Source: Chthoniobacteraceae bacterium (lineage in GTDB: Bacteria > Verrucomicrobiota > Verrucomicrobiia > Chthoniobacterales > Chthoniobacteraceae). Taken from it: a stretch of DNA of 64,000 bases. The notes under the pieces are model-generated. The model was not told where the DNA came from and did no database searches. It worked only from the letters and a program-made list of their open reading frames with translations. Shown piece after piece: positions 3,076 to 42,192 of the stretch (its first letter is position 1; every line of letters starts with the position of its first letter). A program made the translations under genes and the position numbers. Where the stretch lies: the NCBI GenBank assembly GCA_031409655.1, contig JANNXQ010000055.1:1-64000 (forward strand), read 5' to 3'.

Positions 3076-3084
3076 CCATCCACG

Positions 3085-3831: not shown

Positions 3832-4391
3832 TGTCGGCCGCCTGCTCCGCCGCCTCGCGTCTCTGCACGGCCTGCGGCCTGTGCTGCAATGGGGTGCTGT
3901 TTCATACCGTGCGCTTGCAGCCGCGCGATTCGGCGAAGGACCTCACCGCGCTGGGCATGAAACTCAAACGCAAGAAGGGCCAGCGCTACATCCTTCAACC
4001 CTGCCCGGCCTGGCGCGCAGCGGGCTGCACGATCTACGAGAGCCGGCCGGAACGCTGCCGACTTTTCGAGTGCCAGCAATTGCAGCGCGTCGCTCACGGC
4101 AAAATCTCGGAACCCGAAGCACTGGAGAAAATCCGCGAGGCGCAGCGGCTCGTGGAAAAGCTGAACACGCTCATGGACCAGGCCGGAAGGACCGATCCGC
4201 GGCGTCCGCTAACGAAGCGTTTCGAAAAGGTCACCGCCGAGCCGGTCGAGGCCGCGTGGGATGCGGCGGGCGCGGAATTGCGCGCGGAACTCACGGGCAC
4301 GATGCGGCAGTTGGATGAATTGCTGGATCGCGACTTTCGCAATCCAGCCGCACCGAGCAACGACGGGAATCAGCCAGTGCCGAGCCTGTAG
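3831..4391 (+). CDS. YkgJ-family CxxCxxCC zinc/iron-cluster protein
   Basis: LCTACGLCC, PCP, CTIYESRPERCRLFEC; ATG overlaps the upstream TGA. Confidence 0.85.
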   Translation: MSAACSAASRLCTACGLCCNGVLFHTVRLQPRDSAKDLTALGMKLKRKKGQRYILQPCPAWRAAGCTIYESRPERCRLFECQQLQRVAHGKISEPEALEKIREAQRLVEKLNTLMDQAGRTDPRRPLTKRFEKVTAEPVEAAWDAAGAELRAELTGTMRQLDELLDRDFRNPAAPSNDGNQPVPSL

Positions 4392-5422
4392 CCGACCGCG
4401 GTGCGCCGCGCGATCTCGCTCCAGCGGATCGACTCCCGCCAACCCGCAGCGGCAGCGAAACTCGGCCGCGTCGCGAGCGCCCGCGCCAGCGCGAAGGTGA
4501 ACGTTTTTCCAAAGTCAGAGTAGCGCGACACGAAGGGGCTGGGCTCGCCGAGATCGACCGTTTCAAACCGCGTCGGAAACAGGATCGGCACCCCCCACGA
4601 GCGCGCGAGACTCGCGGCGCCGGAGGTGAAGATCGCGCGGTAGTTAAAGAGCACGACATCCACGGCGCTCAGCCAGCAGGCAAGTTCTTCATCTCTCAGC
4701 CGCTCGAGCCGCAAGGTCACATTCCGCACTCCCTCCGCCGCTCGCCGGATCGCCTCGCCATACTCCGGAGTGGAGGGTTTGCCGGTGATGACGAGGTCCA
4801 CCTCCGGCCGCGTCTGCTGCCATTGCGCGAGCACTTCCTCGATGCCCTTGTAAGGCTCAATGGCCCCGAAAATGAGGACCACCGGACCCTCGCCAAGTCC
4901 ACAGCGGGTGCGCGCTTCCGCCCGCGGCACCGGGGGCGGCATGGCCACGGAAAGGTCGCCATGCGGCACGACGCGAATCCGCTCCGGCTCGAGTCCGTAG
5001 GTGGAGACGAGCGTGCCTTTTGCCGGCTCGGAATGCGCGAAGATGACGCGGGCGCGGCGGAGGGCGGCCTGGGCGTTGCGAAAAGCAAAGGGCTCGGTGG
5101 CGCGATTGTGGGCGATCAGATTGTGCGCCGTGATCGCCAGCGGGCAGCGGCGGGTGGCCAGCGCGAGATCGAGCGGAAAGCGGAAGCAGCGAAACCAATC
5201 GCGCCCGTCGCGCAGCGGCGGGTAGTAGGCTTCCGGCCAGTGCAGGTGCAGCAGATCGATGCGGCCCTCGCGCTGCCGATCCGCGATGAGCCGGGTGAGC
5301 GGGAGGATGCGGCGATAATTTTGCAGAAACTCGACCTCCACCCCGTGCAGCGCGAGCGCTTCGGCCAGCAGACCCTGGTAGGGAACGCCGGCCCGCCAGT
5401 CCGGCGCAAAGAGGACCTTCAT
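4370..5422 (-). CDS. GT4 family glycosyltransferase
   Basis: HLHWPE, TAHN, VVPHG, FGAIEPYKGIE, TSGAASLA motifs. Confidence 0.88.
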   Translation of the reverse strand: MKVLFAPDWRAGVPYQGLLAEALALHGVEVEFLQNYRRILPLTRLIADRQREGRIDLLHLHWPEAYYPPLRDGRDWFRCFRFPLDLALATRRCPLAITAHNLIAHNRATEPFAFRNAQAALRRARVIFAHSEPAKGTLVSTYGLEPERIRVVPHGDLSVAMPPPVPRAEARTRCGLGEGPVVLIFGAIEPYKGIEEVLAQWQQTRPEVDLVITGKPSTPEYGEAIRRAAEGVRNVTLRLERLRDEELACWLSAVDVVLFNYRAIFTSGAASLARSWGVPILFPTRFETVDLGEPSPFVSRYSDFGKTFTFALARALATRPSFAAAAGWRESIRWSEIARRTAVGYRLGTG

Positions 5423-6327
5423 TTTGGATCTGCCGCGAGAAGCTGGGGCGAAAGGCGCTTGATGCCTTCCGCGTAAAAGCGATCGCGCACCGCGCCCACA
5501 TAGTGCCGGCAGACCACGTCCTCCGACGCCTGGCGGCCCAACGAAACTTCGTAGCGCTTTGACAAAAGCCCGCCCTTCCCGTGTCGCGCCCCGCAGAGCA
5601 TGTAGAGCGTCTGCTCCACCCGCCAGATGTGCCCGCGCAGGATCGACGTCTGGGCGAGCACGCGATCGAGGAAATCAGGATCGATGGCCGCTTTTTGAAT
5701 CAGGCAGAGGCCACTGTTCACCCGCGACCAGATCTTGACCTCAAGTTCATCACGCGCCTCCGCCGCCGTGAGCAGCGAGGATTCCTGCACGTCTTCGTTG
5801 AACCAGCATTCGTCGTTCTCCGAGCCCGCCCACTCCATGATCTCGTGCGGATACTGGAAGAAAAGCAGATCGCTATCGAACATCAGGTAGCGCGAGCTTT
5901 TACAAAAATGCGGGATGTCGAAAAGCTTCAGCGCGAGCGGATGCAGGCGGCGGTATTCCTCGCAGAAGGGAAACGCCTGGAGCACGCGCTGCATGATCGC
6001 ATCAGCATCGGCCCGCCGGATGATCCGGGCATTGGGGAAAAGCTTTTGCAGCATTGCCACGCCTTCCTCGGGCAGCGTGCCATCGTCGTGAATGGTGATC
6101 GGCCAGGCGTGTTCGCTCGCCTCAAACCAGCTCGCGAGCATCCACGCGGAGAGCCGCCAATCCTTCTCGCCCGTGAGCACATGCACGGGAGTGGTCTGCG
6201 GCACTTCGTTCCAAAATGGCCACGCCCACTCCTCAATCCGCCGCAGCGTCTTGTAGTCGTGGAAGGAGGCTTCCCAGCCGCGCTTGAGATCGCGCCGCAG
6301 GAGCCACCAGAGTTTGCCGGGAGTCAT
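5419..6327 (-). CDS. Putative GT-A fold glycosyltransferase
   Basis: IHDDGTL, KLFD, FDSDLLF (DxD), NSGL, EQT and CRHY motifs; lies between GT genes. Confidence 0.65.
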   Translation of the reverse strand: MTPGKLWWLLRRDLKRGWEASFHDYKTLRRIEEWAWPFWNEVPQTTPVHVLTGEKDWRLSAWMLASWFEASEHAWPITIHDDGTLPEEGVAMLQKLFPNARIIRRADADAIMQRVLQAFPFCEEYRRLHPLALKLFDIPHFCKSSRYLMFDSDLLFFQYPHEIMEWAGSENDECWFNEDVQESSLLTAAEARDELEVKIWSRVNSGLCLIQKAAIDPDFLDRVLAQTSILRGHIWRVEQTLYMLCGARHGKGGLLSKRYEVSLGRQASEDVVCRHYVGAVRDRFYAEGIKRLSPQLLAADPK

Positions 6328-6330
6328 TTT

Positions 6331-6436
6331 GGGAAAGGATGAAGGAGGAAGGATGAGGGATGAAGCAAGCCGGAACCACAACTGCGCCGCCGCCCATCTT
6401 CTTCATCCTTCATCCTTCCGCCTTCATCCTTCTCCC
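6331..6436. repeat. Inverted heptamer array (GGATGAA)x4 ... (TTCATCC)x4
   Basis: Units at 6337-6364 and complementary units at 6402-6429 form a long hairpin that contains the GT2 stop codon. Confidence 0.85.
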
Positions 6437-7300
6437 CATCGCCGCCCGGGCCCGGGCCCGCGCCCACGGGGACAAAAGCCAGTGCGGGTGCCGGAGGAAT
6501 TCGGTGAAGAAGTGGCCGCCACTCGCGGGCGATTTTCCGCCTTGGTAGAGGTCGTAGCAGAGCTGGGCCTCGATGGACCAGCGGCGCAGCGCGGAAGTCC
6601 GCGCCTTCGGCAGATGCCGGCGGACGATGGCGCGGAGTTCATCGGCAGCGCGCTCGGCGGCGGAAGATTTCTGCGCCGCGTGCAGGCGAAAGCGGGAGAG
6701 CACCTCGGGCAAATACGCGATCCGCGCGCCGGCGAGGAAGCAGCGCACCCAGAAGTCGTAGTCGAAGGCAAGGTCGTAGGTGGGGTCGAAGCCGCCCACT
6801 TTTTCCCAGAGCGAACGCCGATAGAAAACCTCCGGTTGCACCCACTGCCGTCCTTTCCACCAGACGCCGTAGATATCGAGCACTTCCTCCGATGAAGCGA
6901 TGCGCCCGGTGTGCCGGCCGGTGACGTGGCCGGCGGCGTCGATCCAGTCCACCGAGCCATACACCAGATCGATGTCCGGATGCGCGGCAAAGAAATCAAG
7001 GACTCGGCGCGCCGCACCTGGAGCGAGCAGATCATCGCCATTCAAGAAGCCAATGATCTCACCGCCCATCTGCTGCATCGCACGATTGAGGGCGTCGGGC
7101 TGCCCTCCGTCCGGCTCGCTCACCACGGTGTCTCCGGGCCGCGCCAGCTGGCGGGCGATCGCCGCCGTGTCGTCGGTCGAAGCGCCATCCTGGAGCCACC
7201 AGCGCACGGCGTCGCCCTGACTATTCAGCGACTCGAGGGTGGCGGGAAGGTATCGGGCGCAGTTAAAGACCGGCACCGCAAGCGTGAGCGGCGCGCTCAT
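6410..7300 (-). CDS. GT2 family glycosyltransferase
   Basis: VPVFN, QDGASTD, SEPDGGQPDALN, FLNGDD, AFDYDFW motifs; alternative start at 7327. Confidence 0.9.
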   Translation of the reverse strand: MSAPLTLAVPVFNCARYLPATLESLNSQGDAVRWWLQDGASTDDTAAIARQLARPGDTVVSEPDGGQPDALNRAMQQMGGEIIGFLNGDDLLAPGAARRVLDFFAAHPDIDLVYGSVDWIDAAGHVTGRHTGRIASSEEVLDIYGVWWKGRQWVQPEVFYRRSLWEKVGGFDPTYDLAFDYDFWVRCFLAGARIAYLPEVLSRFRLHAAQKSSAAERAADELRAIVRRHLPKARTSALRRWSIEAQLCYDLYQGGKSPASGGHFFTEFLRHPHWLLSPWARARARAAMGRRMKAEG

Positions 7301-7328
7301 CTCTGGGGAGCCATCACTATTCCGCACG

Positions 7329-8621
7329 TCATCTCCCCAACTCCTCCACCTTCCATTCCAGCTTCGGACAGACCACGCCGGGCCATGGCTCGGGGAAGGT
7401 CGAGGCCTGATTCCCCGCTCCGGCGATGGTGAAGGTGAGATATTCCGCGGAGGGCAGCAGGTAGCGCTCGCCGGGAATGTCGCACTGGAGATTGACCTGA
7501 TAGTTGCGGCGATTGAGCAGGCCGCCGGGAACGACGCAGCTCGTGCGGTAGCGGCCCGGCAGCTGGGTCTCGCGTTGGAAAAGATGATCGGTGGCGGCGA
7601 AGGCGATCTCCCCTTCCTGGGTCAGCAGCAGCAGGGTGAAGCGCGCCCCGCGCAACCGCTGGAGGACTTCGTAAGTGATCTCGATCGTCACGGGTTTGTC
7701 GGCTTCGAAAGTGGAAGCCGGAGTTCCCTGACCGTCGAGGAGGCGGAGACCGAGGAGCGCGACCTCGTCGCACTTCGGCGCCTGCGCGAGATCGGGCCAC
7801 GCGACCTGGCCGTCGCTCTCTCCGCCCTTTGGCATCGACGCCGAGAGGTAGTGGCTGATGACGTCGCCGGGCGCACCGGTGAGGGTGACACGACCGCCAT
7901 CGATGAGCACCGCGTGCTCACAGAGCGAGCGCACGGCGCCCATATTGTGGCTGACAAAGAAAACCGTGCGGCCTTGTTGCGAAGCCACTTCGCCCATCTT
8001 GCCGAGACACTTTTTCTGAAAGCCCGCATCGCCGACGGCGAGCACTTCATCGATGAGCAGGATCTCGGGATCGAGATGCGCGGCGACGGCAAAAGCGAGC
8101 CGCACGAACATCCCGCTGGAGTAGCGCTTCACCGGGGTGTCGATGAACTTCCCGACCTCCGAGAAGTCCACGATCTCGTCAAACTTCGCGAGGATCTCCG
8201 CGCGGCGCATCCCGAGGATGGCTCCATTCAGGAAGATATTCTCACGCCCGCTCAGCTCGGGATGAAAGCCCGTGCCAACTTCCAACAGCGAGACGACGCG
8301 CCCGCGCAGGATCGCCCGTCCGCTCGTCGGCTCGGTGATGCGCGAGAGGATTTTGAGCAGGGTCGATTTGCCCGCACCGTTGCGACCGACGATGCCCACG
8401 ACCTCGCCCGCGTTCACGGAAAAGGACACATCCTTCAGCGCCCAAAAGGTATTCGGCTCCGGCCCGGCGCGATCGTCGGGAACCGGCATCCGGCCCGTGG
8501 TCTGCGCTGGTGCGGGCTTGCGCGAAAAGATGCCGTTCAGCGACTCGCGCACACTGGTGAGGCCGGTGGCGCCGAGCTTATAGAGCTTCGACAGATTCTG
8601 GACTTCGACGATCGGCTTCAT
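7329..8621 (-). CDS. wzt: Polysaccharide ABC exporter ATPase with C-terminal Wzt carbohydrate-binding domain
   Basis: GRNGAGKST, LLEVGTGFHPELSGRENI, YSSGM, LIDEVLAVGD; ~170-aa C-terminal extension. Confidence 0.93.
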   Translation of the reverse strand: MKPIVEVQNLSKLYKLGATGLTSVRESLNGIFSRKPAPAQTTGRMPVPDDRAGPEPNTFWALKDVSFSVNAGEVVGIVGRNGAGKSTLLKILSRITEPTSGRAILRGRVVSLLEVGTGFHPELSGRENIFLNGAILGMRRAEILAKFDEIVDFSEVGKFIDTPVKRYSSGMFVRLAFAVAAHLDPEILLIDEVLAVGDAGFQKKCLGKMGEVASQQGRTVFFVSHNMGAVRSLCEHAVLIDGGRVTLTGAPGDVISHYLSASMPKGGESDGQVAWPDLAQAPKCDEVALLGLRLLDGQGTPASTFEADKPVTIEITYEVLQRLRGARFTLLLLTQEGEIAFAATDHLFQRETQLPGRYRTSCVVPGGLLNRRNYQVNLQCDIPGERYLLPSAEYLTFTIAGAGNQASTFPEPWPGVVCPKLEWKVEELGR

Positions 8622-9472
8622 GCGGAATCGACGACGGTGCGCTCCACGCGCTGGAAGAGAGCGATGCCGGTGACGAGGAGAAAGAGCGTGATCGCGAGCG
8701 AGATGATGATCTCCCGCAGGCAGAGCGTCCCTCTTCCCAAAAGACAGATGCGGAAAGCCTCGACCGGCGCCGACATCGGATTGGCCCAGACGAGCCACTG
8801 CCACTTCGGTGACACCTTGGAGAGCGGATAAATGACCGGCGTCGCGAACATCCAGATCTGCGTGAGGTAAGTGGTGAGATGCACGAGGTCGCGGTACTTC
8901 GCCGTCGAGGCGGCCATCCACAGACTCACGCCGAGGCTCAGCGCCGCGATCTGGAGCAGCGGCAGCGGCAGGAGGAGCGCGTGCCACGAGAGGACTGCCG
9001 CACCTTCCTGCGCCGAGAGAAAGTAATAGGCCGCGAAGGCCGTGAAGGGGATGAGCTGGAGCGCGAAGGAGACGAGATTCGCGACCACGATGGAGACCGG
9101 CACCATGATGCGCGGGAAGTACACCTTGCCGAAGAGGTGCGCGTTATTGACGAAGGTAGCGCCGCCGGAGGTGATGTTTTGCGAGAAGTAATTCCAGGCC
9201 AGCAATCCGCACAGATAGAAGAGCGGGCCCGGGACGCCGTCCGTGGGGATGCCGGCGATGCGGCCGAAGATGATCGCGAAGACGATGGTCGTGAGCACTG
9301 GCTGGATGAGGAACCAGAGCGGACCGAGGACGGTCTGCTTGTAGCGCGAGATGAAGTCGCGTTGCACGAAGAGCACGAGCAGATCGCGATAGTGCCAGAG
9401 TTCCGCCCAGTTGACCTTCAGCCAGCCGCTCGAACGTTCGACGATGAGTTCGTATCCAGGCTCGGATTTCAC
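8618..9472 (-). CDS. wzm: Polysaccharide ABC exporter permease
   Basis: RDFISRYKQTVLGPLW, KVYFPR, KYRD, TPVIYP motifs; GTGA overlap with the PPTase stop. Confidence 0.93.
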   Translation of the reverse strand: MKSEPGYELIVERSSGWLKVNWAELWHYRDLLVLFVQRDFISRYKQTVLGPLWFLIQPVLTTIVFAIIFGRIAGIPTDGVPGPLFYLCGLLAWNYFSQNITSGGATFVNNAHLFGKVYFPRIMVPVSIVVANLVSFALQLIPFTAFAAYYFLSAQEGAAVLSWHALLLPLPLLQIAALSLGVSLWMAASTAKYRDLVHLTTYLTQIWMFATPVIYPLSKVSPKWQWLVWANPMSAPVEAFRICLLGRGTLCLREIIISLAITLFLLVTGIALFQRVERTVVDSA

Positions 9473-10140
9473 GACGGCCAGGAACAGCACTCGAGCTGGA
9501 AGTCCGCGCCTTCGACAGCGAGCGCCGCGGCGAAGCCCGCCGCCGGCGCAAGCTTGAGCATCGACCAGCGATCGGGATCGAGGACGCGCCCACCTTCGGC
9601 AAATCCAGTGCCGCCCGCTTTCAAGCGTGCCTCCGTGCAAGTCCAGACGTCGTAAAATTTCCACGCCCGCTTCTCCACCGGGAGCTGGCGCAGTTCCCAC
9701 GCTTCCTCGGGATCAAAGTAGTGATCCGCGAGCGTCTCGAAGGGCAGGTTTTGCTGCATCTGCTCGAGATCGATCCCGATCTCGCGGCCGTAGGTGACGG
9801 CGAGCAGCATCAGGTCGTCGGAGTGGCTCACATTAAAGCGCAGCATCGACGCCGGATTCAGGAGCGCGGGTTTCCCGTGCGGGCCGACGTTGAATTCAAT
9901 CTCGTGTGCATCCACGTCCAGATAGCCGGAGAGAATCGTCCGCACCAGCCCGCGTGTGGCCACGTGCCGATCGCGGTCTTGCGCAAAGTGAAAGCGTCCC
10001 GCGCGGATCCACTCTTCGGGCGAGAGAGTCTCGGAGAGCGCTGGCGTGGGCTCGAGGCGCGCGCGCCAGAGATGGACTTCGCCCGGCCGGAGGGGGCGCG
10101 GAGAGTCGGTCGTCTGCCAGGTTTCGATTGCGGTCAGCAT
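9469..10140 (-). CDS. Sfp-type 4'-phosphopantetheinyl transferase
   Basis: GKP, FNVSHS, IGIDLE, WTCTEARLKA motifs. Confidence 0.9.
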   Translation of the reverse strand: MLTAIETWQTTDSPRPLRPGEVHLWRARLEPTPALSETLSPEEWIRAGRFHFAQDRDRHVATRGLVRTILSGYLDVDAHEIEFNVGPHGKPALLNPASMLRFNVSHSDDLMLLAVTYGREIGIDLEQMQQNLPFETLADHYFDPEEAWELRQLPVEKRAWKFYDVWTCTEARLKAGGTGFAEGGRVLDPDRWSMLKLAPAAGFAAALAVEGADFQLECCSWPS

Positions 10141-13100
10141 GGGATGTTGCGGTGGGCCTGCTCGATGAGTTCGCGCAGCTTTGCGGCGGCGGTGCCGGCG
10201 TGTTCTCGGATGTAGGAAAGGTGGTCGCCGGGCAGCAGGTGGATGTCAATGCCGCCGGTCGGTGCGCTCCGCCAGGCAGTCTCGACCATGCTCTCATGGG
10301 CGTCGCGCGGCAGGAGCAGAGTGACGCGACCGGGATACGGCGGGAGGGTGTGCCCCTTGAGCAGGCGCGGGTAGTGCTCCAGGTGTTTGCGTTCTTCGAT
10401 CCGCACCGGAGCGGCCGTGCCAGGGCCGATGCGGAGGATGCGCTGCCAGACGTAGCGCAGCTTTCCGCCGAGCGAGAGGCGCGAAAGTTTCGCCAGGTGC
10501 CCGCGCCAGGGCTGCCGGACGCGCACTTCCCAGAATCTCGCGCGAGCTTCAGCCCGTTCCGCGAGGCAGAACTCTTTGAGCGCCTCCCTGCTCGGACAAT
10601 GGGTGTCGAGCAGCGCCAGGAGCGCGATCTTTTCGCCCTGCGCGGCGAGGATGCGCGCGATCTCGTAGGCGGCCACTCCGCCCACGCATTCGCCGCCGAT
10701 GAGATACGGACCGTGGCGCTGATGGGCCCGGATCTCGGCCACGTATTCCGTCGCCATCTCGGCCACGGTGCGGTGCGGCGGCATCGAGCCATCGAAGCCG
10801 CGCGCCCGGAATCCGTAGATCGGGATGTCGGCGCCGAGTTGCCGGGCAAAAGTGCCATAGACGAGGAACTCGATCTCCCCTCCCCAGCCGCCCGGGACGA
10901 GGAAAAAGGGGCGCTGATCGGGATCCCCGCGCTGGATCGCGATGAGGCTGCGCAACGGGGAAATCGGCGCCGCCGCTTCGCGTCGTGTCTCGATGAAACG
11001 CGCGACTCCTGCGACGGTGGGCGCGGCAAAAAGATTCCGCACGGGCAGATCGACTTCGAATTTTTCCCGCACCCGACCGAGCAACCGAATCGCGAGCAGC
11101 GAGTGCCCGCCGAGATTGAAAAAATCATCATCAACCGCGACGCGCGTGCGCCCGAGCACCTCCTCCCAGAGCGCCGCGACCTCCTCCTCGATCGGGGTGC
11201 GCGGAGCGCGGGAGTCGGATCGAGTGACCTCGGGGATCGGCAGCGCCGCCCGGTCCAGCTTGCCATTGCGCGTGAGCGGGAATGCCGGCACGGACACGAA
11301 GGCCGACGGAATCATCGGACTCGGGAGCGACGGCGCGATGCTCGCGCGAAGCTCGTCCGCCGTGGGGGTGAAGTCGCCAGTCGGGATGTAGTAGGCCGCG
11401 ATGCGCCCGCTCTCATGGACCACGCGGCAATCGGCGACGCCGTCTGCTTTTCGCAAGGCCGCCTCGATCTCCGAGGGCTCGATGCGGAAGCCGCGCAGCT
11501 TGATCTGTCCGTCGGCCCGCCCGAGATAGTCGATCGTGCCGTCAGGGAGCCACCGGGCGAGATCGCGCGTGCGGTAGAGTCGGCCAAAACGCGTGTCCAG
11601 GAAACGCGCGGCGGTGAGTTCCGGCGCATCGTGGTAGCCGAGCGCCACGCCGGGACCGCCAATATAGATTTCGCCGGTGACGCAGATCGGGACGGGCACC
11701 TGCGCCGCATCGAGGAGATAGACGTGCGTGTTCGAGATCGGGCGACCGATGGGCACCGCTGCACCGGCGACGGCTTCGATCGTATGGCAGATGGCGAAGG
11801 TGGTCGTCTCGGTCGGGCCGTAACCATTCACGAGCCGCTGCGGCCGGCCGTGCTCCAGCACCAGACGCACACTCACCGGGTCTGCGGCTTCGCCCCCAAA
11901 CACAAGCTGCCGCAAGCCGGCAAACATTGCCGACGACTCATGGGCGAGCCGGTTGAAGAGCGAGGTCGTGAGGAAAAGGACGGTGACTTTATGCTGCGTG
12001 AGGTGCGCCTCCAGCGCCCGGGGCGAAAGGAGCACGTCGGGCGCAACGGTGACGAGCGTCCCGCCGTGGAGCAGTGCGCCCCAGATTTCAAAGGTCGCCG
12101 CGTCGAAGCAAGGGTTCGCCGCGAAGGCGACGACGTCATCCGCGAGGAAAGGGGCGTAGTCGTTGTTGCAGACCAGGCGATTGATGGCGCGATGCGGCAC
12201 CACGACGCCCTTCGGCACGCCAGTCGAGCCCGACGTGAAAAGCATGCACGCGGCTGCACCCGCACTGGCCTGCCCGGCAGGATTCCCGGGGACCAGCCCG
12301 CGGGGAAGCGCGGCGAAATCGAGCGTCGTCTCGCACTGGGCGATCATGCGCCCGAGCCGCTCAGGAGCCTCCGCCGTATCCAGAGGCACATACGCCCCAC
12401 CCGCTTTCAAGATGCCGAGCACGCCGGCGACAAACCGCGCACTGCGCTCCGCCGGCAGACCGACCAGACTGCCCGACGCGATCCCGCGCTCGCGCAACTC
12501 AGCGGCGATCGCATTCGCGCGCCCGTTCAGCTCCTGGTAGGAAACGCGATCGGTGCCGGCGATGATCGCGACACCGTCGGGCTGGCGCGTGGCGACCTCT
12601 TCGAAAAGCGCCTGCAAGGTGCGATCGTGCGGATACTCGCGGGACGCCCCATTCCAGGTCACGAGCAGTTGCTTTTCATCCGCGGCGGAGAGGATCGCCA
12701 AACGCGAGAGCGGCGTGCGCACGTCGGCCACGATCGCCGCGAGCAGCAACTCGAAACTCGCGAGAAGCCGGTCGATGGTCTGGGACGAAAACACATCGGT
12801 GTTGAATTCCATCGAAGCGCGCATCCCCGATCCGCTTTCCCGGAGAAAGAGCGTGAGATCAAACTTCGCCGTCGTGGCGGGCGCGTCGATCGGCGTGACC
12901 TTCACGCCTTGTAGTGAGAGCGCTGGGCCGTCGCTGGGCTGGAGAACGAAAGCCACCTGAAAGAGCGGATGATGGCTGGTGTCGCGCGGCGGCTGGAGTT
13001 CCTCGACGATCTTTTCAAACGGCGCGTCCTGATGCCGATAGGCGTCGAAGACGGTACTCCGCACCCGACCCAGCAAGGCGCGGAAAGTGGGATCGCCGGA

Positions 13101-17100: not shown

Positions 17101-20100
17101 ATGCCGAGCGCAGCGCCGGCAAGTCGAGCGGGCCGCGAAGTTCGAGCGCGGACGCTTCGTTGTAAGCGCGCGAGGCATCGGAATTGCGGGCGGCGAGGGC
17201 GAAGAGGCCGCGCTGCGACGGAACCAGCGAGAGCGTCGAAGGCACCTTCGTCGAAACCGTCGGAGGCGCTTCAAAAGCGAGCGCCTTTGACGCGAACCAC
17301 GGAGCGAGTTCCTCGACGCTTTCGCGAAACGCACTGACGAATCGCGCGAGATCCTCCTCGGTATGGGCGGTGGAGAGGAAGAAGAGCCGGTTGTTCCAAA
17401 CGTGGACGCCTTTCTCCCGCAGCAGGAAAAAGAGCACGGCGCTGAAGGCGAAGTCTTCCCCGAACTTCAGGAAAAAGAAGGAGGAGAAGGATTCGACTCG
17501 GATCGGCGCACCGCACCCGGCGATGATTGTGTTCAGCTCCACAACCAACTGCGCGGTGCGGCCATTCAGCTGCTGCTGTAGCGCGCCACCGTCCGCTTGC
17601 AGAAAACGCAGCATGGCCAGCGATGCCGCCATGGCCAGCGGATGGCGCACGAAGGTCCCGGCAAAGAATGTCAGCCCGGTCTCGGGGCGCGAGTCGTCGC
17701 CGAAACCCCAGGCGCCGCCATCGAGCGCGTCCATGAATTTGCAACGACCGCAAAGCGCACCCATCGGCATGCCGCCACCGACGATCTTCCCATACGTGAC
17801 CAAATCCGCGCGGACCTCGAACCACGCCTGCGCCCCACCGGGATGACACCGGAAGCCGGTGATCACTTCATCGAAGACCAGCGCCGCGCCGGCTTCCTGC
17901 GTGATGCGGCGGACTTCCTGAAGAAACTCGCGCGGCTGCAAATCGGGATGCCGACTCTGCACCGGCTCGACCAAGACCGCGGCGATCTCGTGGGCTCGGG
18001 AGCGGAGAATTGCGAGTGACTCGGCGGTGCCATACTCCAGTGCCAGCACTCCGCTGGCGATGTGCTCAGGGATCCCGGGCGCGATTGGCACCGAGCGCCG
18101 CTCGCCGTCGATCGTGCGACTGCGGATCAGGAATTCATCATTGATGCCATGGTAGCCGCTGAAGGTCGCGATGAGGCTGCGTCCGGTGACGGTGCGGGCG
18201 ACGCGGACGGCAGCGAGCACGGCCTCGGAACCGGTATTGGTAAAGGCCGCGCGGTCCTGACCGCTGAACTCGCAGAGCAGCCGCGCGAGCTCCCCGGCGA
18301 CCGGTGATTGCGGACCGATCTCGATGCCGCACGCAAGCTGGGCGGCGATGGCATCGGTGATGAAGGACGGAGAGTGGCCGAGGAGGTTCGTGCCGTAGCC
18401 CATCGTGAAGTCGAGGTACTCGTGGCCGTCCACATCCCAGAGCTTCGACCCGGCAGAGCGCTCGACGACGATGGGATAGGTGAGCTCTTTCCAATATGGC
18501 CGGAAGCCGGATACCGAGCGTGGATCGGCGAAATGCGCACGGGTTTCCTGGGTGCGGCGTTTCGATGTCGCCGTGCGAACGGTGTAGCGAGCGGTGAGCT
18601 CCGCGAGGTGCTGCTGCTGGGCAGTGGTCAGGATCTCCGCGGCATCGCGCTGGATCGGCCGGAAGGGGCCATGCGCCTGAAGTAGCGCTGGCTGGAGTAG
18701 CGCAGGCTGCCAGCCTGTAGGAGTGCCGCAGGCATCCTTGCCTGCTTCGCCCGGCAGGCTGGAAGCCTGCGGCACTCCGACAGGCAGGGATGCCTGCGCT
18801 ACTGCGGGCGGCGCCATCTCGATCTCCGCCGCGAGCGCTCCGATCGTCGCGAACTCTTCGAAGAGCTGACGGAAGGAAACTTCGATGGCGAATTTTTTGC
18901 GGAGCGCAAGCGCGACCTGGGTGAGAAAGAGCGAATCGAAACCGAGTTCGAGCAGGGTGGTCGCGGGCTCCATCTTCTCGACGGCCACACCGGACATGCC
19001 GTGGAGCAATGTACGAAGCTGATCGAGGGCGATCGATGGCGGGCTCGGGACGGGGCGCGCCGTGGCGGCGGATGCAGGCGGCAACGGGGCTTCGAGCACC
19101 GCGCTCGGCACCCGCGCTTCTCCCGGCTCCAGCCAGTAGCGCTCGCGCTCGAAGGGATAGGTGGGCAGGGCCACTTTCAATCGGCGTTCGTCGCCGCGCA
19201 GGAGTTTCCAATCGATGGCCACGCCAGCGATCCAGAGGCGTCCGAGAGCTTCGAGCAGCGAGGCGTGTTCGCGTTCGCCGGAGGCGCTCTGGGAGGCGAC
19301 CACCGGACCGCCACGCGACTGCCGCGCCGGCGCGGCTAGCGTCGAGCCAGGGCCGACCTCGAGAAGCACGCGCTCCGGGGCGATCGACGCGGCAGCAGCC
19401 GCGAAACGCACTGGCTCGCGCATCTGCCGCGGCCAGTATTCCGCTCGCGTGAAGTCCGCATCCGCGTCGCCGGAAAGGGTGGAGATGAGCGGGATGCGCG
19501 GGGCGTCGAATCGCACCGCGGCGGCAAGCGCGGAGAAGACGGCCGCCGCGGGTTCCATCATCGCGGAGTGAAAGGCGTGCGAAGTCCGCAGCGCCACGGT
19601 GGCGATGCTTTGCGCCGCCATTTGCGCGGCAAAATCGGTGATCGCCGCGGTGGAACCCGAGACGACGCAGAGGCGCGGCGCATTGATCGCGGCCACTTCG
19701 ATGCCGACCGGGAGCAGTGGCTGGAGTTCCGCTTCGGAGAGACGGACTGCGAGCATCGCGCCGCCGGGCATCTCCTGCATGAGCTGCGCGCGCTCGGCGA
19801 CTAGCTCGAGGGCGTCTTCCAAAGAGAGCACCCCGGCAAGACAGGCGGCGGAAAATTCCCCAACGCTGTGCCCGAGCAGAGCGGCAGGCTCGATGCCCCA
19901 CGAATGCCAAAGCCGCGCCAGCGCATACTCGACGGCGAAGATCGCGGGTTGGGCGACGCGGGTGTCCGTCAGCGCCGCCGATGTGTCCTCCGGGTAGAGC
20001 GCCGCGATGAGATCCAGGCGGGGTGCGAGGATTTGCGCGCAGCGGAGCATCGCCTCGCGGAAGACGGGCTCGCCGTCGAAGAGCTCGCGCGCCATGCCGG

Positions 20101-23100
20101 GATATTGCGCGCCCTGACCAGGGAACATGAAGACAACCTCCGGCGCGGAAGTCGTGACCTTTCCGGAAACCACGCGGCGCCCGTCCTTCATCTCCAGCAG
20201 CTCGGCCGCCTCTGCCGGATCGCGGGCGACGACGCTGCGCCGATGTTCAAATTCGCGGCGGCCGCTTTGCAAAGTGTGCGCGACATCGGCCAGCACCGCG
20301 TCGGGATTTTCGCGCAGGTAGCGCGCGAGATTGGCGGTCGCCGAGTCGAGCGCGGTCGCGGTGCGGGCGGAAAGGACGAGCAACTGCCATGGCCGAGTCG
20401 CCGGGGTGCCGACGACGAGCGGCGCTTCCTCGAGCACGGCGTGGGCATTCGTCCCACCGATGCCAAAGCTGCTCACCCCCGCGCGCCGCACGCACTCGCC
20501 CCGCGGCCAGGGCGTGAGCGAGGCATTCACGACAAACGGACTGTGCGCAAAATCGATCTGCGGATTTGGCGTTTGAAAGTGGAGGCTTGCCGGAAGGAGT
20601 CCGCGATCAAGAGCCAGCGAGGCTTTGATGAGGCCGGCGGCACCGGCGCCCGCGTCGAGGTGACCGATGTTTGTCTTCAGCGATCCGATGCGGCAGAAGC
20701 CCGTGGCGTCGGTTGTTTTTCGGAAGGCTTTCGTGAGGGCGGTGAGCTCGATGGGATCGCCGAGACTCGTCCCGGTCCCGTGCGCCTCCACGTAGCCGAT
20801 GGTCTCCGCGCTGACTCCCGCAGCGGCGTGGGCGCTGGCGATGGCGGCGGCTTGCCCGGCCACGGACGGCGCGGTGAAGCCCGCCTTGTCGCCGGCGTCG
20901 TTGTTGATCGCGGTGCCGCGGATCACGCTGGAGATGCGATCGCCATCGCGCACGGCATCGGCGAGGCGCTTGAGCACGACGGTCGCGATGCCATTCGCCG
21001 GGACGCAGCCGCGGGCCTCGGCGTCAAAGGCGCGGCAGTGCCCATCGGGAGAAGGGATGCCGCCATCGACATACGGATAGCCCGCGTGGAGCGGCACGCT
21101 GATCCGGCCCCCGCCGACCAGCGCGAGATCACTTTCCCCGCTGCGCAGACTCTGGCAGGCGAGGTGCAGCGCGACGAGCGAGGTGGAGCAGGCGGTCTGC
21201 ACGCCGATCGCGGGTCCACGCAGGCGCAGCTTGTGCGCGACGCGCGTGGCCACGAAGTCCTTCTCATTGCCGAGCGTCAGCGCGTAGGTGCCGAGCAGCG
21301 GCGTCAGTTCGGGCCGGGTGGCGAGGTTGAATTGGAAATAGTCGTTCACCGCGACGCCCGCGAAGACGCCGACCGCGCCGGCAAAGCGCGAGACGTCGCA
21401 GCCCGCATTTTCAAAGGCCTCCCACGCGCACTCGAGGAAGACGCGCTGCTGCGGGTCCATGAGTTCGGCTTCGCGCGGCGTATAGCCAAAGAAGGCGGCG
21501 GCAAATTTGTCGGCATCGTCGATCTGCGCGCCGGCATTCACATAGCCCGGCTCACTGGCCGTCGCGGCGGCGATGCCGGAAGCGCGGAGTTCTTCTGCGG
21601 TAAAGGGCCGGATCGATTCCACGCCCGCGCAAAGGTTTCGCCAGAACTCCTCCACATTCCGCGCCCCGGGAAAGCGGCCGGACATCCCGATGATCGCAAT
21701 CGCGTCGGGCGGCAGTGCGGGTTTCGCCGGCTCCTCGGGCGGCGCGCATTTCGGCGTTCGCTGGGCCACGCCGAGTTCTTCCGCGAGCTGCCAGGTGGGT
21801 GCGGAGAGGAAATCGTCCGCCATCATTCCGCGCCAGCCTTCGGCGATCTCGGGCTTGATGGAGCCGTGCTCGTGGAAGCGCGGATCATCGGGCGTATGCC
21901 GTCCGGCATCGGGCTTCGTGCTTTCGCGATAGGGCTCGAGCATCGCAGGCTCGAAGGGAAACCCGAGGGCCTGGCAGAGCGCCTCCAGGCTGGCGCGCGG
22001 CTGCGTCACGAGATCGGAGAAACGCAAATCGAGGCGGCGCGTCGCCGGAATCTTCGTGAGGAAATCGGTGATGTTCCGATGCGCCGCGAGCCACACCTTT
22101 TCACCCACCTCACCGGGCGAGAGATCGCCGGCGTCCGGGAGGTAGATGCGATCCATCCGCTGCCGCTCAAAGGAGCGGATCATCTCGTAAGGATGCCGCG
22201 CGAGATGGATGTAAAAGGCGTCCTCGAAGATCTCTTCGGCGTGCTGCAGCGCCGCCGGGTCGAGAGCGTAAGACGGCGATTTATCCACGAGCACGCGCGG
22301 GTCGATCCACTGCTGGAGCACGGCGAAAAAATCCGCGGTGTCGAGATGGAGTCGCTCGTAGCCATCGAGCAGTTGCGCGGCTTCCGCGTGGGTGCAGCCT
22401 TTCGCCGCGAGGATGGCGTCGATGCGGCCCTGTCGCCCGACCGCCGCTGCGGCAGCGTCGCCAGAGCTGCGTTCCCCGAGCGTCCGCGGGCCGAGCAGGC
22501 GGAGTTCCGAGGCGGTGAAGAGCGCCGGATGCGCCGCGAGCATCGCGCGGAGCAGGGTGGTGCCCGAACGCGGCGGACCGAGGATGAAGATGGCGCGCCG
22601 ATTTTTCGGACGCACTGAGGAAGGGGAAGGAGAGGCGTGGACGGCGGCGGCTGGGGTGGTCTCGACCGCGCGCTCGACGGCGACGCTACGCTCGGGAGGC
22701 TGCTCCTGAAAGACGCGCGCGACGGCCGCGGGGTAGTGCTGGCGGAGATAGGCCGCGAGCTGGGAAATGGTGGGTGCCTCAAAAAGCGCGACGACGAAGA
22801 TCGGCTCGCCGAGCGTCGCCTGGAGTCGGCTGCACAATGTCGCCGCGAGCAGGGAATCGCCGCCGAGATCGAAGAAGCGATCATGAACCCCAACGGACTC
22901 GAGGCGCAGGACGGCGCGCCATTCCTCCGCGAGATGCCGCTCGGTGGCGGAACGCGGCTCGACGAAGGCGGACTCGAGTTCCGGCCGCTGGCGACTCGGC
23001 GCGGGGAGAGCGGTGCGATCCACTTTGCCATTTGGCATCCGTGGGAAGGCGTCCAGCGCGACGAAGGCGGACGGTTGCATGAAGGCGGGTAATTTTTCCG

Positions 23101-24466
23101 CAAGCGCTGCTCGGAGCGAGGCGACCGCGCAGGTGGCGGGCGTGCAGTAGGCTACGAGGCGCGGCTCCGCACTCTCGTCACTCCGCACGATCGCCACGGC
23201 CGCCTCCACACCGGGACACGCGCCGAGGACGGCTTCGATGGCGCCGAGTTCGATGCGGTAGCCGCGGAGCTTCACCTGACGGTCGGTGCGACCGAGGAAT
23301 TCCAAGTGGTCGTCCGGCGTGAGGCGGGCGAGGTCGCCGGTCTTATAGAGGAGGAAGCCGGACCCGCAGGTGACGAACCGGGCGGCGGTGAGGTCCGGGC
23401 GATGGTGGTAGCCGCGCGCCACTCCTGGCCCGGCGATGTGGATCTCGCCCGTCTCTCCGTCGGCGACGGTGTCGCCATTTTCATCGAGCAAGAGAATGTG
23501 TGCGCCCGGGATCGGCTGACCGATGGTGACGAGCGCCGGTGGCGGCACCAGACGGGCGACGGTGCTCCAGACGGTGGCCTCGGTGGGGCCGTATTCATTG
23601 AAGAGTTCGGCCTCCGGTAGGCGACGGGCGTGCGCGAATGGCAACTCCTGCGGACACGTTTCTCCTGCAACGATGACGGTCCGAAGCGTTCCAAGATCGC
23701 CTCCCAACGCGAGCAAGCGGGCGAGCACGGACGGCAGACAAAGGGTGTGCGTGATTTTTTCCGCAGCAATGATCGCGGCAAGCGCCGCGGGATCGCGCTC
23801 TTCGCCAGAAGGCGTGAGGACGAGCGTCCCGCCGGTGCTGAGCGTCCAGAAGAGACCCGCGACCGAGCTATCGAAGGCAAAGGAGGAAAGCAGGAGGAAC
23901 CGCTCTGGCGCGCGGCGGTAGTAGTCGAGCCGCGCCTGGGTGGAGTGAGCGAGATTGGCGTGCGTGACCAGCACCCCCTTGGGCGGCCCCGTGGAACCTG
24001 AGGTGTAGATGATGGAGGCGAGTTGGTCGCCGTCGATCTCGGCAGGCTGGGCTTCGCCGGCGCCATCCGGGTCCACGTCTTCAAAAAAGACCAGCGTCGC
24101 GGCAGAAACCGGCACTTTGTCCCCCAGCGGGCGGGAGCAAAGGATCACGCTCGCCTCACAGTCTTCGAGCGTGAAGGCGATCAGCTCCGCCGGATATTCA
24201 GGGTCGATCGGAGCATAGGCCCCGCCGGCGTAATGCACGCCGAGGATGCCGACCACAGTCTCGGGCGAACGCGCGGCGAGGATCGCGACCGTCGCTTCAC
24301 TCCCGACGCCGAGCGCCCGGAGCCGCGACGCGACCGCGAGCGCCCGCCGATGCAGGTCGCTGTAGCTCCGGGCTTCGCTGCCGCAACGGATGGCGAGCGC
24401 GTCCGGCGTCCGGGCGGCTTGGGCCGCGATGAGTTGCGGCACCGACGCTGGCACGAGATCGCTCAT
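14150..24466 (-). CDS. Hybrid NRPS/PKS: A-T-sulfotransferase-KS-AT-ACP-aminotransferase-C-A-T
   Basis: A (YTSGSTGPPKG), T (LGGDSL), ST (PRSGTTLLR, DKSP, RHP), KS (TACS, HGTGT, GHL), AT (GHSVG, HAFH), ACP (GFDSL), class III aminotransferase (FDEV, YGK), C (HHIFCNG), A, T (GGHSL). Confidence 0.93.
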   Translation of the reverse strand: MSDLVPASVPQLIAAQAARTPDALAIRCGSEARSYSDLHRRALAVASRLRALGVGSEATVAILAARSPETVVGILGVHYAGGAYAPIDPEYPAELIAFTLEDCEASVILCSRPLGDKVPVSAATLVFFEDVDPDGAGEAQPAEIDGDQLASIIYTSGSTGPPKGVLVTHANLAHSTQARLDYYRRAPERFLLLSSFAFDSSVAGLFWTLSTGGTLVLTPSGEERDPAALAAIIAAEKITHTLCLPSVLARLLALGGDLGTLRTVIVAGETCPQELPFAHARRLPEAELFNEYGPTEATVWSTVARLVPPPALVTIGQPIPGAHILLLDENGDTVADGETGEIHIAGPGVARGYHHRPDLTAARFVTCGSGFLLYKTGDLARLTPDDHLEFLGRTDRQVKLRGYRIELGAIEAVLGACPGVEAAVAIVRSDESAEPRLVAYCTPATCAVASLRAALAEKLPAFMQPSAFVALDAFPRMPNGKVDRTALPAPSRQRPELESAFVEPRSATERHLAEEWRAVLRLESVGVHDRFFDLGGDSLLAATLCSRLQATLGEPIFVVALFEAPTISQLAAYLRQHYPAAVARVFQEQPPERSVAVERAVETTPAAAVHASPSPSSVRPKNRRAIFILGPPRSGTTLLRAMLAAHPALFTASELRLLGPRTLGERSSGDAAAAAVGRQGRIDAILAAKGCTHAEAAQLLDGYERLHLDTADFFAVLQQWIDPRVLVDKSPSYALDPAALQHAEEIFEDAFYIHLARHPYEMIRSFERQRMDRIYLPDAGDLSPGEVGEKVWLAAHRNITDFLTKIPATRRLDLRFSDLVTQPRASLEALCQALGFPFEPAMLEPYRESTKPDAGRHTPDDPRFHEHGSIKPEIAEGWRGMMADDFLSAPTWQLAEELGVAQRTPKCAPPEEPAKPALPPDAIAIIGMSGRFPGARNVEEFWRNLCAGVESIRPFTAEELRASGIAAATASEPGYVNAGAQIDDADKFAAAFFGYTPREAELMDPQQRVFLECAWEAFENAGCDVSRFAGAVGVFAGVAVNDYFQFNLATRPELTPLLGTYALTLGNEKDFVATRVAHKLRLRGPAIGVQTACSTSLVALHLACQSLRSGESDLALVGGGRISVPLHAGYPYVDGGIPSPDGHCRAFDAEARGCVPANGIATVVLKRLADAVRDGDRISSVIRGTAINNDAGDKAGFTAPSVAGQAAAIASAHAAAGVSAETIGYVEAHGTGTSLGDPIELTALTKAFRKTTDATGFCRIGSLKTNIGHLDAGAGAAGLIKASLALDRGLLPASLHFQTPNPQIDFAHSPFVVNASLTPWPRGECVRRAGVSSFGIGGTNAHAVLEEAPLVVGTPATRPWQLLVLSARTATALDSATANLARYLRENPDAVLADVAHTLQSGRREFEHRRSVVARDPAEAAELLEMKDGRRVVSGKVTTSAPEVVFMFPGQGAQYPGMARELFDGEPVFREAMLRCAQILAPRLDLIAALYPEDTSAALTDTRVAQPAIFAVEYALARLWHSWGIEPAALLGHSVGEFSAACLAGVLSLEDALELVAERAQLMQEMPGGAMLAVRLSEAELQPLLPVGIEVAAINAPRLCVVSGSTAAITDFAAQMAAQSIATVALRTSHAFHSAMMEPAAAVFSALAAAVRFDAPRIPLISTLSGDADADFTRAEYWPRQMREPVRFAAAAASIAPERVLLEVGPGSTLAAPARQSRGGPVVASQSASGEREHASLLEALGRLWIAGVAIDWKLLRGDERRLKVALPTYPFERERYWLEPGEARVPSAVLEAPLPPASAATARPVPSPPSIALDQLRTLLHGMSGVAVEKMEPATTLLELGFDSLFLTQVALALRKKFAIEVSFRQLFEEFATIGALAAEIEMAPPAVAQASLPVGVPQASSLPGEAGKDACGTPTGWQPALLQPALLQAHGPFRPIQRDAAEILTTAQQQHLAELTARYTVRTATSKRRTQETRAHFADPRSVSGFRPYWKELTYPIVVERSAGSKLWDVDGHEYLDFTMGYGTNLLGHSPSFITDAIAAQLACGIEIGPQSPVAGELARLLCEFSGQDRAAFTNTGSEAVLAAVRVARTVTGRSLIATFSGYHGINDEFLIRSRTIDGERRSVPIAPGIPEHIASGVLALEYGTAESLAILRSRAHEIAAVLVEPVQSRHPDLQPREFLQEVRRITQEAGAALVFDEVITGFRCHPGGAQAWFEVRADLVTYGKIVGGGMPMGALCGRCKFMDALDGGAWGFGDDSRPETGLTFFAGTFVRHPLAMAASLAMLRFLQADGGALQQQLNGRTAQLVVELNTIIAGCGAPIRVESFSSFFFLKFGEDFAFSAVLFFLLREKGVHVWNNRLFFLSTAHTEEDLARFVSAFRESVEELAPWFASKALAFEAPPTVSTKVPSTLSLVPSQRGLFALAARNSDASRAYNEASALELRGPLDLPALRSALQALVDRHESLRTSISADGETQTIHPRAALPLPVLDCPTPPEVAREIAAVAALQFDLSRPPIIDARLLRCGPEHHVLVVTLHHIFCNGPSLGVFFEELCTLYRDRRAELPAARQLRDFVKRRLKSSAPAAEAFWKMQFAHAAPPLELPLDRPRPAHKTYAGGRETTHLDAELVAALRLAGARQGASLFMTLLAAFQTLLHRVTGQDDLVIGVPFEGEDRGQPGGDRLIANSTNVMPLRSQVAAGTTFAELLARNRALILEATAHQDYFFGDLVAALGQPFDASRAPLFNAVFNYESGRFSRDVKGLKVELVNDREPWLGLRQTAIAEVYLNVTEHAGTLTFRCDYNRDLFDATTVQRWLGHLRTLLAAVAANPTLQVARLPLLTASERQQLLVEWNDNALDFPRDATLHQLLEASAKAHPDACAILDHGRRISYRQLAAQADAVAAQLQSLAIGKEAFVGICMQRSAEMIGAMIGVLKAGGAYVPLDPAYPDERLAVMLEDSRAAVVLCDRVTEQSHAPKLGGAQWVQPWSEGTPMASGATGENLAYLIYTSGSTGRPKGVALEHRNAVAFVHWAQQAYTREELACVLGSTSICFDVSIFEIFVTLATGGTILLAENVLELPRLPDADLLTFLSTVPSAMAELVRDFNLPASIQTVNLGGESLPDALVDAVFRGSAVRRVVNMYGPTETTTYSTFSECQPGAAATIGGPIANTDLFLLDAHLEPVPIGVVGEVYIGGAGLARGYWGQPELTAERFLPNPFGKSERLYKTGDLMRRRADGQLLYVARADHQVKVRGYRVEPGEIDAALGTHPGVREAVTVGHGRADGEMRLVAYLVPAAEMPTVQSLREHLRQSLPEYLIPSAFIEIATLPRTASGKLDRRALPEPGDGGRVSDADLVAPRDAEEQRVAEIWQEVLRIGRVGVHENFFDLGGHSLAAMQVASRLRGSGETEVSFLDVFERPTIAALAEVIRNSAPAAEVEEGVL
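18696..18803. repeat. Nested REP/REPIN-like palindrome inserted in frame in the ACP-aminotransferase linker
   Basis: AGTAGCGCAGGC...GCCTGCGCTACT outer arms and GGAGTGCCGCAGGC...GCCTGCGGCACTCC inner arms; 108 bp. Confidence 0.8.
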
Positions 24467-24755
24467 GCGGCGAAGGCGGCCCCCGCCGGGAACGCAATTC
24501 GCTCACACCACTGGAAATGTACGCTCCTGCCACTCCGACCCAGCCCCCGCTTCTGCCCAGCGATCGCGCCGTTTTCCGGGAGGTTTTTTCTAATGATCAT
24601 GATTTTGTTTGCGCGTCGGACCGCTGGCCGGAATGGTTCCCCAGACGTAAAGGGCACGCTGGGAGATTTTCCGGCATTCGAGTCATGATCCAATTTTCGC
24701 ATCCAAGAATTAGCAATGGGTATGCCAGTGCTGCCCAAGCCAACCGCTCCAACCA

Positions 24756-25343
24756 ATGGAACTGAAAGGCTACACGACGGGCGACTTTGACCGCGGCGCT
24801 CCACGCTGGAAAGAGGCGCTCTGGATGATGGTGAAGTGCGTCTTTTTCCTGAACCCCCTCCCCTGGCCGTCCGCCCTGCGGGTCGCGCTCCTGCGGCTCT
24901 TCGGAGCACGGATCGCCGAGGGCGTCGTCATCCGCTCGAGTGTGAATGTCACCTTTCCCTGGCGCCTCACGATCGGTCGCGATGTGTGGATTGGCGAAAA
25001 CGTCCTCATCCTGAGCCTCGGGCAGGTGACGATCGGGCCCAGCGTCTGCATCTCGCAGCGGGCTTTCCTTTGCACGGGGTCGCATGACTTTCGCTCACCG
25101 GGTTTCGACCTCATCGTCAAGCCGATCACCATCTGCGGGCACTCTTGGATCGCCGCGCAGTCCTTCATCGCGCCGGGCGTCGAGGTCGGCGAGGGCAGTG
25201 TGGTCACAGCCGGGACGGTCGTGATCGCGGATGTCGAGCCCCGCACCGTGGTCCGCGGCAATCCAGGCGTGGCCGTGAAAGAGATCGTGCCAATGCGGTG
25301 GTCGACGCTCGAAATGCGCGAGGCCGTCGCCAGCGCGCGTTGA
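24756..25343 (+). CDS. wcaF: WcaF-like hexapeptide-repeat polysaccharide acetyltransferase
   Basis: LLRLFGARI, FPWRLTIG, CISQRAFLCTGSHD, GNPG motifs. Confidence 0.88.
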   Translation: MELKGYTTGDFDRGAPRWKEALWMMVKCVFFLNPLPWPSALRVALLRLFGARIAEGVVIRSSVNVTFPWRLTIGRDVWIGENVLILSLGQVTIGPSVCISQRAFLCTGSHDFRSPGFDLIVKPITICGHSWIAAQSFIAPGVEVGEGSVVTAGTVVIADVEPRTVVRGNPGVAVKEIVPMRWSTLEMREAVASAR

Positions 25344-42155: not shown

Positions 42156-42192
42156 TCGGAGTGATTGAGTAAGGCCGCGCCGCCGCGTGCTT

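Follow-up and report, generated by a model that had tools for sequence, protein, structure and literature searches.

The 64,000-nucleotide window analyzed here (positions 1 to 64,000 of contig JANNXQ010000055.1 from a Chthoniobacteraceae bacterium, assembly GCA_031409655.1) carries at 4370..24466 an operon in which a hybrid nonribosomal peptide synthetase/polyketide synthase (NRPS/PKS) assembly line is followed by a phosphopantetheinyl transferase (PPTase), a Wzm/Wzt-type exporter and three glycosyltransferases. The locus is real, conserved and apparently undescribed. From the gene context we consider it rather probable that the product of the line is an acyl-peptide which differs between strains and optionally decorates a surface glycan linked to undecaprenyl, and not a free antibiotic; this decoration is predicted to be transferred, probably by a cysteine thioesterase, before export. 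To judge from the loci compared, the synthase behaves as a dispensable cassette: relatives exchange it in the manner of a serotype gene and retain the sugar genes.

All eight genes are open frames on the minus strand. The hybrid NRPS/PKS (g1, 14150..24466, 3438 aa) and the NRPS (g2, 10134..14153, 1339 aa), both assigned from Pfam domains and motifs, overlap by 4 bp (14153-14150) at the TTG start of g2. A 7 bp overlap joins g2 to the Sfp/HetI-type PPTase gene (g3, 9469..10140), assigned by Pfam, motifs and a tree, with the NCBIfam HetI model below cut-off. The PPTase gene in turn overlaps the Wzm-type ABC-2 permease gene (g4, 8618..9472) by 4 bp at a GTG at 9472; an alternative GTG start at 9490 overlaps as well. 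Another 4 bp overlap (8621) connects wzm to the wzt gene (g5, 7329..8621). Gaps of 28 and 82 bp precede the GT2 glycosyltransferase gene (g6, 6410..7300; Pfam, NCBIfam) and the GT-A gene (g7, 5419..6327), and the latter overlaps by 4 bp (5422) with the GT4 gene (g8, 4370..5422; Pfam, NCBIfam). The orientation, the five overlapping junctions and the two gaps agree with the preliminary description of this DNA, as does the absence by Pfam of efflux, resistance and regulator genes inside the operon, though a sigma-54-type site was found upstream. Both the translational coupling from synthase to wzt and the lack of an efflux or resistance gene support a role in glycan decoration. Just beyond the operon end lies a Methyltransf_24 gene (3115-3831), and relatives carry Methyltransf_24, FkbM or TylF-type methyltransferases within the locus.

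Wzm and Wzt match the Pfam families ABC2_membrane and ABC_tran and form the permease and ATPase pair of ABC-dependent glycan export; among NCBIfam models the nearest are those of glycan exporters, with scores under their cut-offs. Two further assignments come from structure models. The C-terminal tail of Wzt scored below the Pfam cut-off and received no name from sequence searches, but in comparisons of its fold four Wzt carbohydrate-binding-domain structures rank first (Z 14.1, 13.1, 12.4 and 10.8). The g7 protein, the marker of the locus, has a DxD motif and no Pfam or NCBIfam match, and sequence searches again gave no name; its fold is GT-A, closest to the GT8 enzyme LgtC (Z 18.1, root-mean-square deviation 3.6, 224 aligned residues), and the earlier label of this gene as GT-A was correct.

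Within the 6.85 Mb assembly, g1/g2 are the sole NRPS/PKS containing a ketosynthase (KS), g3 is the sole PPTase match of the Sfp/HetI type and there are five wzm matches, so that adjacency by chance is unlikely; the synthase-PPTase-wzm order is kept in many genera and has therefore been inherited as one unit. GC content and GC content at third codon positions give no sign of the operon as a recently acquired horizontal island. Scans of 3000-15000 for sigma-70 promoters and terminators yielded nothing exceeding shuffled sequences, and an Rfam scan of 3000-27000 gave no match.

By Pfam, g1 has the domain order A-PCP-sulfotransferase-KS-AT-ACP-class III aminotransferase-C-A-PCP (A, adenylation; PCP and ACP, peptidyl and acyl carrier protein; AT, acyltransferase; C, condensation), and g2 the order TubC_N docking-C-A-PCP-thioesterase. 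The motifs of the carrier serines, the KS cysteine, the AT and the aminotransferase are intact, and Pfam finds in the operon no fatty-acyl loading domain and no ketoreductase (KR), dehydratase (DH) or enoylreductase (ER). The nucleophile of the g2 thioesterase is a cysteine (GECVG) in place of the serine found at this position in its PDB matches, among the matches listed. By general specificity rules, we take the A2 code to specify a small residue and the A3 code, in g2, a hydrophobic one. The A1 code of g1 is of the histidine type, identical to one listed in the available portion of PMC12283262 for histidine, a residue that can accept beta-hydroxylation; the A2 and A3 codes were not found in the text and supplement of that paper. 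The first C domain of g1 carries an HHIFCNG variant, with Asn replacing the usual Asp. In close relatives a luciferase-like monooxygenase stands between aminotransferase and C domain, and since the Asn-type C motif co-occurs with this monooxygenase in relatives, the g1 lineage has likely lost it. For the sulfotransferase, the best PDB match is that of CurM (E 4e-52); the phosphoadenosine-phosphosulfate (PAPS) motif is kept, and two residues past the conserved glutamate CurM has His and g1 Arg. The sulfation suggested in the preliminary description would be a variable feature, as this CurM-type domain is missing from several wzm-linked lines.

The aminotransferase-type synthase was found in 19 of the 60 relatives searched and is linked to wzm in ten of them: on one contig in G019, G022, G028 and G031, loosely and inside a large glycan region in G042, and across a contig break, with thioesterase, PPTase and wzm adjoining, in G001, G002, G012, G029 and G036. 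Two of the 19 are not assignable as linked or unlinked; the G009 locus is bounded by contig edges on both sides, and G038 lies outside the comparison. The complete string stands on one contig in two further records (L093 and L094). A search of metagenomes returned 80 loci of the GT-A gene, near-duplicates kept, of which 24 extend at least 8 kb upstream, and NRPS, PPTase and wzm occur together in 17 of these 24, with 15/15 at 55% GT-A identity or above versus 2/9 below. The linkage in relatives, the two complete records and the close-clade metagenome loci all argue for the decoration reading. The frame that is kept in relatives sets WaaL-like, WecA, WcaI and WcaF genes against a synthase slot followed by PPTase-wzm-wzt-GT2-GT-A-GT4, and the synteny proposed at the outset, from synthase to glycosyltransferases, is thus conserved across genera.

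Different synthases occupying this one slot are a further reason to see the product as a variable decoration. Their starters are of the His, Val, Thr or Pro type; AT, monooxygenase, sulfotransferase and extra PKS genes are each present in some lines and missing from others, and the lines differ even among members of the genus to which the source genome belongs; in G025 and G026 the slot is filled by other or fragmented lines. Separately, G025 and G008 (L055, L085-L086) contain a DH-FkbM-carrier protein, 3HCDH, ACP, acyl-CoA dehydrogenase and a serine-type A domain ahead of KR-containing PKS genes, a set reminiscent of a cassette for an unusual extender unit. The G042 region (L062-L065) spans 80 kb of glycan genes with three synthase lines, carbamoyltransferase, acyltransferases and a polysaccharide deacetylase. 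A second PKS family, of ~2,500-2,630 aa frames with ~40% identity, is present in several relatives (G002:C23, G005:C58, G008:C19, G019:C129, G022:C16 and C19, G042:C2).

The association extends beyond the family. A quick midpoint-rooted tree of 63 aminotransferase domains unites the 43 rows from short lines in one clade (SH-aLRT 100), and 20 long-line or stand-alone rows, cyanobacterial ones included, fall outside it, their flanks mostly not covered. Polysaccharide loci of various kinds hold 25 of the 43 (one on weak grounds), 12 rows lie outside such loci and six are partial or unassignable; the 25 speak for a link with glycans, and wzm-linked rows sit at at least five places in the clade. 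Eight genomes in a sample of 400 from the phylum have the synthase. Four, from one genus of another class, accompany GT4 arrays and a ligase; in three of these WcaF overlaps the synthase stop codon, with WcaI, WecA and PPTase nearby and no wzm. One of the eight synthases faces Wza-Wzc-Wzx, and the region examined around the other three holds no glycan genes. Rhizobiaceae copies adjoin exo-like clusters, one sphingomonad and one acidobacterial copy lie within exopolysaccharide loci, and a DegT aminotransferase adjoins two of these copies. The tie of the synthase family to polysaccharide loci is therefore upheld, recurring in other classes and phyla. The thioesterase nucleophile is a cysteine in 55 of 64 rows, including every row that precedes wzm, which again favors the decoration reading, and among the nine serine rows six have no glycan genes in view, one has flanks that were not seen and two stand beside glycan genes. 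In the rhizobial clusters a conserved 540 aa GINT1_N protein, a candidate transfer or tailoring enzyme, follows the C-PCP-thioesterase gene in 4/4 cases (L116, L120, L123 and L128).

Upstream of g1 the unit continues. The eight genes at 4370..24466 are real, but the true unit is larger than first delimited, since a sigma-54-type site and the divergent wcaF- and wcaI-like genes belong to it. The -24/-12 promoter-like site (24713..24727, minus strand) is directed into the synthase operon from ~250 bp upstream of g1. It is the single match in the window, where 0.69 are expected, so that alone it is not above chance. With the pattern loosened post hoc, after inspection, 10 of 16 distinct wcaF-upstream regions match, identical regions being counted once (shuffle mean 0.42, maximum 4); these are 9/9 loci with a synthase in the slot versus 1/7 without, which counts in favor of the decoration reading. 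RpoN is encoded in the source genome. More short blocks conserved among close relatives lie at 24590-24690, possible wcaF promoter or activator sites. On the plus strand follow a WcaF-family sugar acetyltransferase gene (24756..25343; NCBIfam PRK10502 above cut-off), whose position is kept in relatives, and a WcaI-like GT4 gene (25410..26504; Pfam, NCBIfam), a conserved partner there. In relatives, WecA-like and WaaL-like genes come next, giving the WecA-type transferase and WaaL-type ligase of a Wzm/Wzt pathway; here both sit on contig C73 (61% and 45% identical to the relative's). Two genes without a Pfam match at E 1e-7 (26514-27458 and 27603-29072) follow the wcaI-like gene, at the place that wecA takes in relatives. 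The wcaI-like gene lies 4 kb from a separate Wzx/Wzy-type cluster (30321-38917: Wzc-like, two GT4, flippase, Wzy_C protein), a candidate for a second acceptor pathway. At 38914-43848 are a convergent GT4 fusion, a DUF2334 deacetylase and an Lnt-like gene, whose nearest models, below cut-off, are GlcNAc-phosphatidylglycerol synthase and deacetylase.

These features suggest a mechanism, in which the substrates of the line, the peptide transfer and the final acceptor are what we infer. The WecA-like enzyme would start the glycan on undecaprenyl phosphate, the WcaI-like, GT2, GT-A and GT4 enzymes would extend it and WcaF would acetylate it. Once the PPTase has primed the carrier domains of g1/g2, module 1 is predicted from its code match to load histidine or beta-hydroxy-histidine; the KS would add one malonate, and the aminotransferase would convert the beta-keto group to an amine, giving a 3,4-diamino acyl unit. 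Two further modules would each contribute a residue, first a small one, then a hydrophobic one, and the CurM-type domain may add sulfate. In the least certain step, the cysteine thioesterase would release the chain onto a hydroxyl or amine of a sugar rather than onto water; WcaF, or a ligase elsewhere, are alternative candidates for this transfer. Wzm/Wzt would then recognize a feature of the sugar and flip the glycan, which the WaaL-like ligase would place on lipid A-core or surface proteins; both acceptors are conceivable because the source genome has 23 PEP-CTERM matches and six exosortases.

Several observations weigh against this proposal. The synthase lies apart from wzm in seven of the 19 relatives (G010, G016, G023, G027, G034, G045 and G059), the unlinked copy of G023 being adjoined by a GT4 homolog only, and the synthase slot beside the sugar cassette is empty in G005, G007, G010, G027, G034, G046 and L207; the peptide is therefore dispensable for the glycan. 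Saprospiraceae copies have a near-identical domain string and no glycan neighbors; they account for three of the 12 clade rows without glycan genes in the region covered. The preliminary description, in calling the line "hard-wired" to the exporter, thus overstates the linkage. Glycan labels of clade rows were set by the analyst from 10-20 kb flanks, and Chthoniobacterales loci share ancestry, so that few independent events are represented. Cysteine thioesterases are present in unlinked copies too, kinship confounding the pattern, and in the available part of PMC11298585 the characterized cysteine thioesterases SulM and ObiF cyclize free products. By Pfam, the operon has no amino-sugar aminotransferase or deacetylase to provide an acceptor amine. 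Lastly, the WecA-like and WaaL-like partners, and an AsnB-like one on contig C154, are off-contig in the source genome. The empty slots themselves suggest that an originally linked synthase was lost or moved elsewhere, since a PPTase gene remains ahead of wzm in five of the seven, with motifs decayed in G010, G034 and L207. PPTase-like genes with decayed CoA-binding motifs, lying before wzm or before a second PPTase gene, were noted with the slot empty in L270, L271, L207 and L274.

The strongest competitor, though in our estimate unlikely, is a free small molecule (a signal, a metallophore-like histidine peptide or a strained-ring product) merely co-regulated with the glycan genes, its cassette riding in a variable envelope island and borrowing promoter and PPTase. 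The mobile, optional nature of the cassette and its unlinked copies in relatives and Saprospiraceae would fit, a histidine starter plus diamine could bind metal, and the pairing of sulfotransferase and cysteine thioesterase is, in the accessible sections of PMC11298585, one that releases the free monobactam sulfazecin. Against such a molecule stand the repeated placement in differing polysaccharide loci across several phyla and the overlap of WcaF with the synthase stop in three genomes; the operon offers it no exporter, uptake receptor or resistance gene, and its last residue, predicted by general specificity rules from the A code to be hydrophobic, would have no beta-nucleophile for a beta-lactam or lactone.

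Improbable, by comparison, is the peptide as an aglycone or anchor, released, glycosylated by GT2, GT-A and GT4 and exported by Wzm/Wzt as a glycopeptide. An NRPS/PKS core likewise underlies the glycopeptidolipids of mycobacteria, and three glycosyltransferases and an exporter do share the operon with the synthase. Moreover, WcbR/RkpA PKSs occur in capsule export clusters (PMC3908369, available part). The identical set of glycosyltransferases and exporter nevertheless stands without a synthase elsewhere, undecaprenyl is the carrier suggested by the WecA-like and ligase-like genes, and the line has neither fatty-acyl loading nor reductive PKS domains, which weakens the anchor role. Still less probable is a chain-terminating cap recognized by the Wzt C-domain, on which export would depend: the fold shared with cap-binding Wzt domains and the tight coupling of synthase to wzm would suit it, but an alignment of this domain from 16 loci, among them the synthase-free G005 (68%) and G007 (62%) and others whose lines are predicted to make different products, shows 52-83% identity and 39 invariant columns, and the domain is as conserved without a synthase as with different ones, making an export cap unlikely. 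The earlier proposal of the peptide as cap, decoration or anchor of a surface glycan is accordingly supported in part: the conserved context holds, decoration is the more probable version, and cap and anchor are weakened.

More tentatively, as a serious possibility that we would not yet call probable, the decoration reading may be widened to the short aminotransferase-type NRPS/PKS lines of Verrucomicrobiota, Acidobacteriota and Alphaproteobacteria as a whole. These would be "serotype cassettes", each building a different diamino-acyl peptide, with the cysteine thioesterase acting as a glycan transacylase before Wzm/Wzt or Wzx export. If so, many orphan NRPS/PKS clusters counted as antibiotic potential would be cell-surface chemistry. 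For the operon itself, a multi-module hybrid line that is exchanged within a fixed glycan-export slot would connect the assembly lines of natural products with the diversification of the envelope (phage receptors, predation, adhesion), give cysteine thioesterases a new role and explain orphan clusters that yield no free compound. As cultured rhizobia, such as Rhizobium cremeum S302 and Peteryoungia aggregata LMG 23059, hold a related synthase beside an exo-like cluster, the idea is directly testable.

The literature searched, subscription papers mostly lying outside it, yielded no report of a connection between an NRPS/PKS and Wzm/Wzt; the sections available of PMC8692599, PMC4062626, PMC7849407 and PMC13721041 give no such account. 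The best plasmid match of the g2 thioesterase, Ruegeria NZ_CP065364.1, has a hybrid line among glycosyltransferases, a DegT aminotransferase, acyltransferases and a sugar transferase, but with a KS-AT-KR-carrier-thioesterase order, a serine nucleophile, no aminotransferase domain and no wzm/wzt in the 37 kb seen. The pattern of this Roseobacter-group block, a KR-containing PKS and thioesterase followed by GT2 and a monooxygenase NRPS, differs from the one here. MycA, McyE and PuwE contain KS-ACP-aminotransferase-C modules for beta-amination within long lines for free lipopeptides, with fatty-acyl loading and a serine thioesterase. The KS-(AT)-ACP-class III aminotransferase-C-A-PCP order is shared, relatives adding the luciferase-like monooxygenase; the present line differs in its amino-acid starter code, three residues, cysteine thioesterase and separate aminotransferase clade. 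Carrier-protein chemistry decorates surface polymers one residue or lipid at a time: in DltABCD, an A domain and a carrier protein give the D-alanyl decoration of teichoic acids, a single residue whose transfer, outside the membrane, runs through an MBOAT protein, whereas here a multi-module hybrid line stands in an operon without MBOAT. WcbR/RkpA are single reducing PKS/fatty acid synthase modules (KS-AT-DH-ER-KR-ACP) without NRPS modules, thought to yield a lipid.

Sulfazecin synthetases share the sulfotransferase and cysteine thioesterase, the latter with Gln-Cys-Asn where g2 has Glu-Cys-Val (PMC11298585, as far as available); the last A code here is of the hydrophobic type, and the operon has no terminal diaminopropionate module or its biosynthetic genes. 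SulM, ObiF and CurM enzymes release a free beta-lactam, beta-lactone or alkene, and the available material reports no glycan export genes with them. Like WcbR/RkpA, the present line is a thiotemplate megasynthase within a glycan synthesis and ABC export cluster (PMC3908369, in part), but with three A domains, an aminotransferase and a sulfotransferase, and without KR, DH or ER. On type B flagellin of Clostridioides difficile, a short sulfonated peptide caps a surface glycan (PMC5207245); this peptidylamido-glycan, made on an amino sugar by FemAB-like and ATP-grasp enzymes rather than an NRPS (PMC5207246), is the same type of product as predicted here, with no ABC exporter in what the two papers, as available, describe. 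The nearest precedents, on the available parts of these sources, are thus the capsule-cluster PKSs (PMC3908369) and the non-NRPS sulfonated peptide cap (PMC5207245, PMC5207246).

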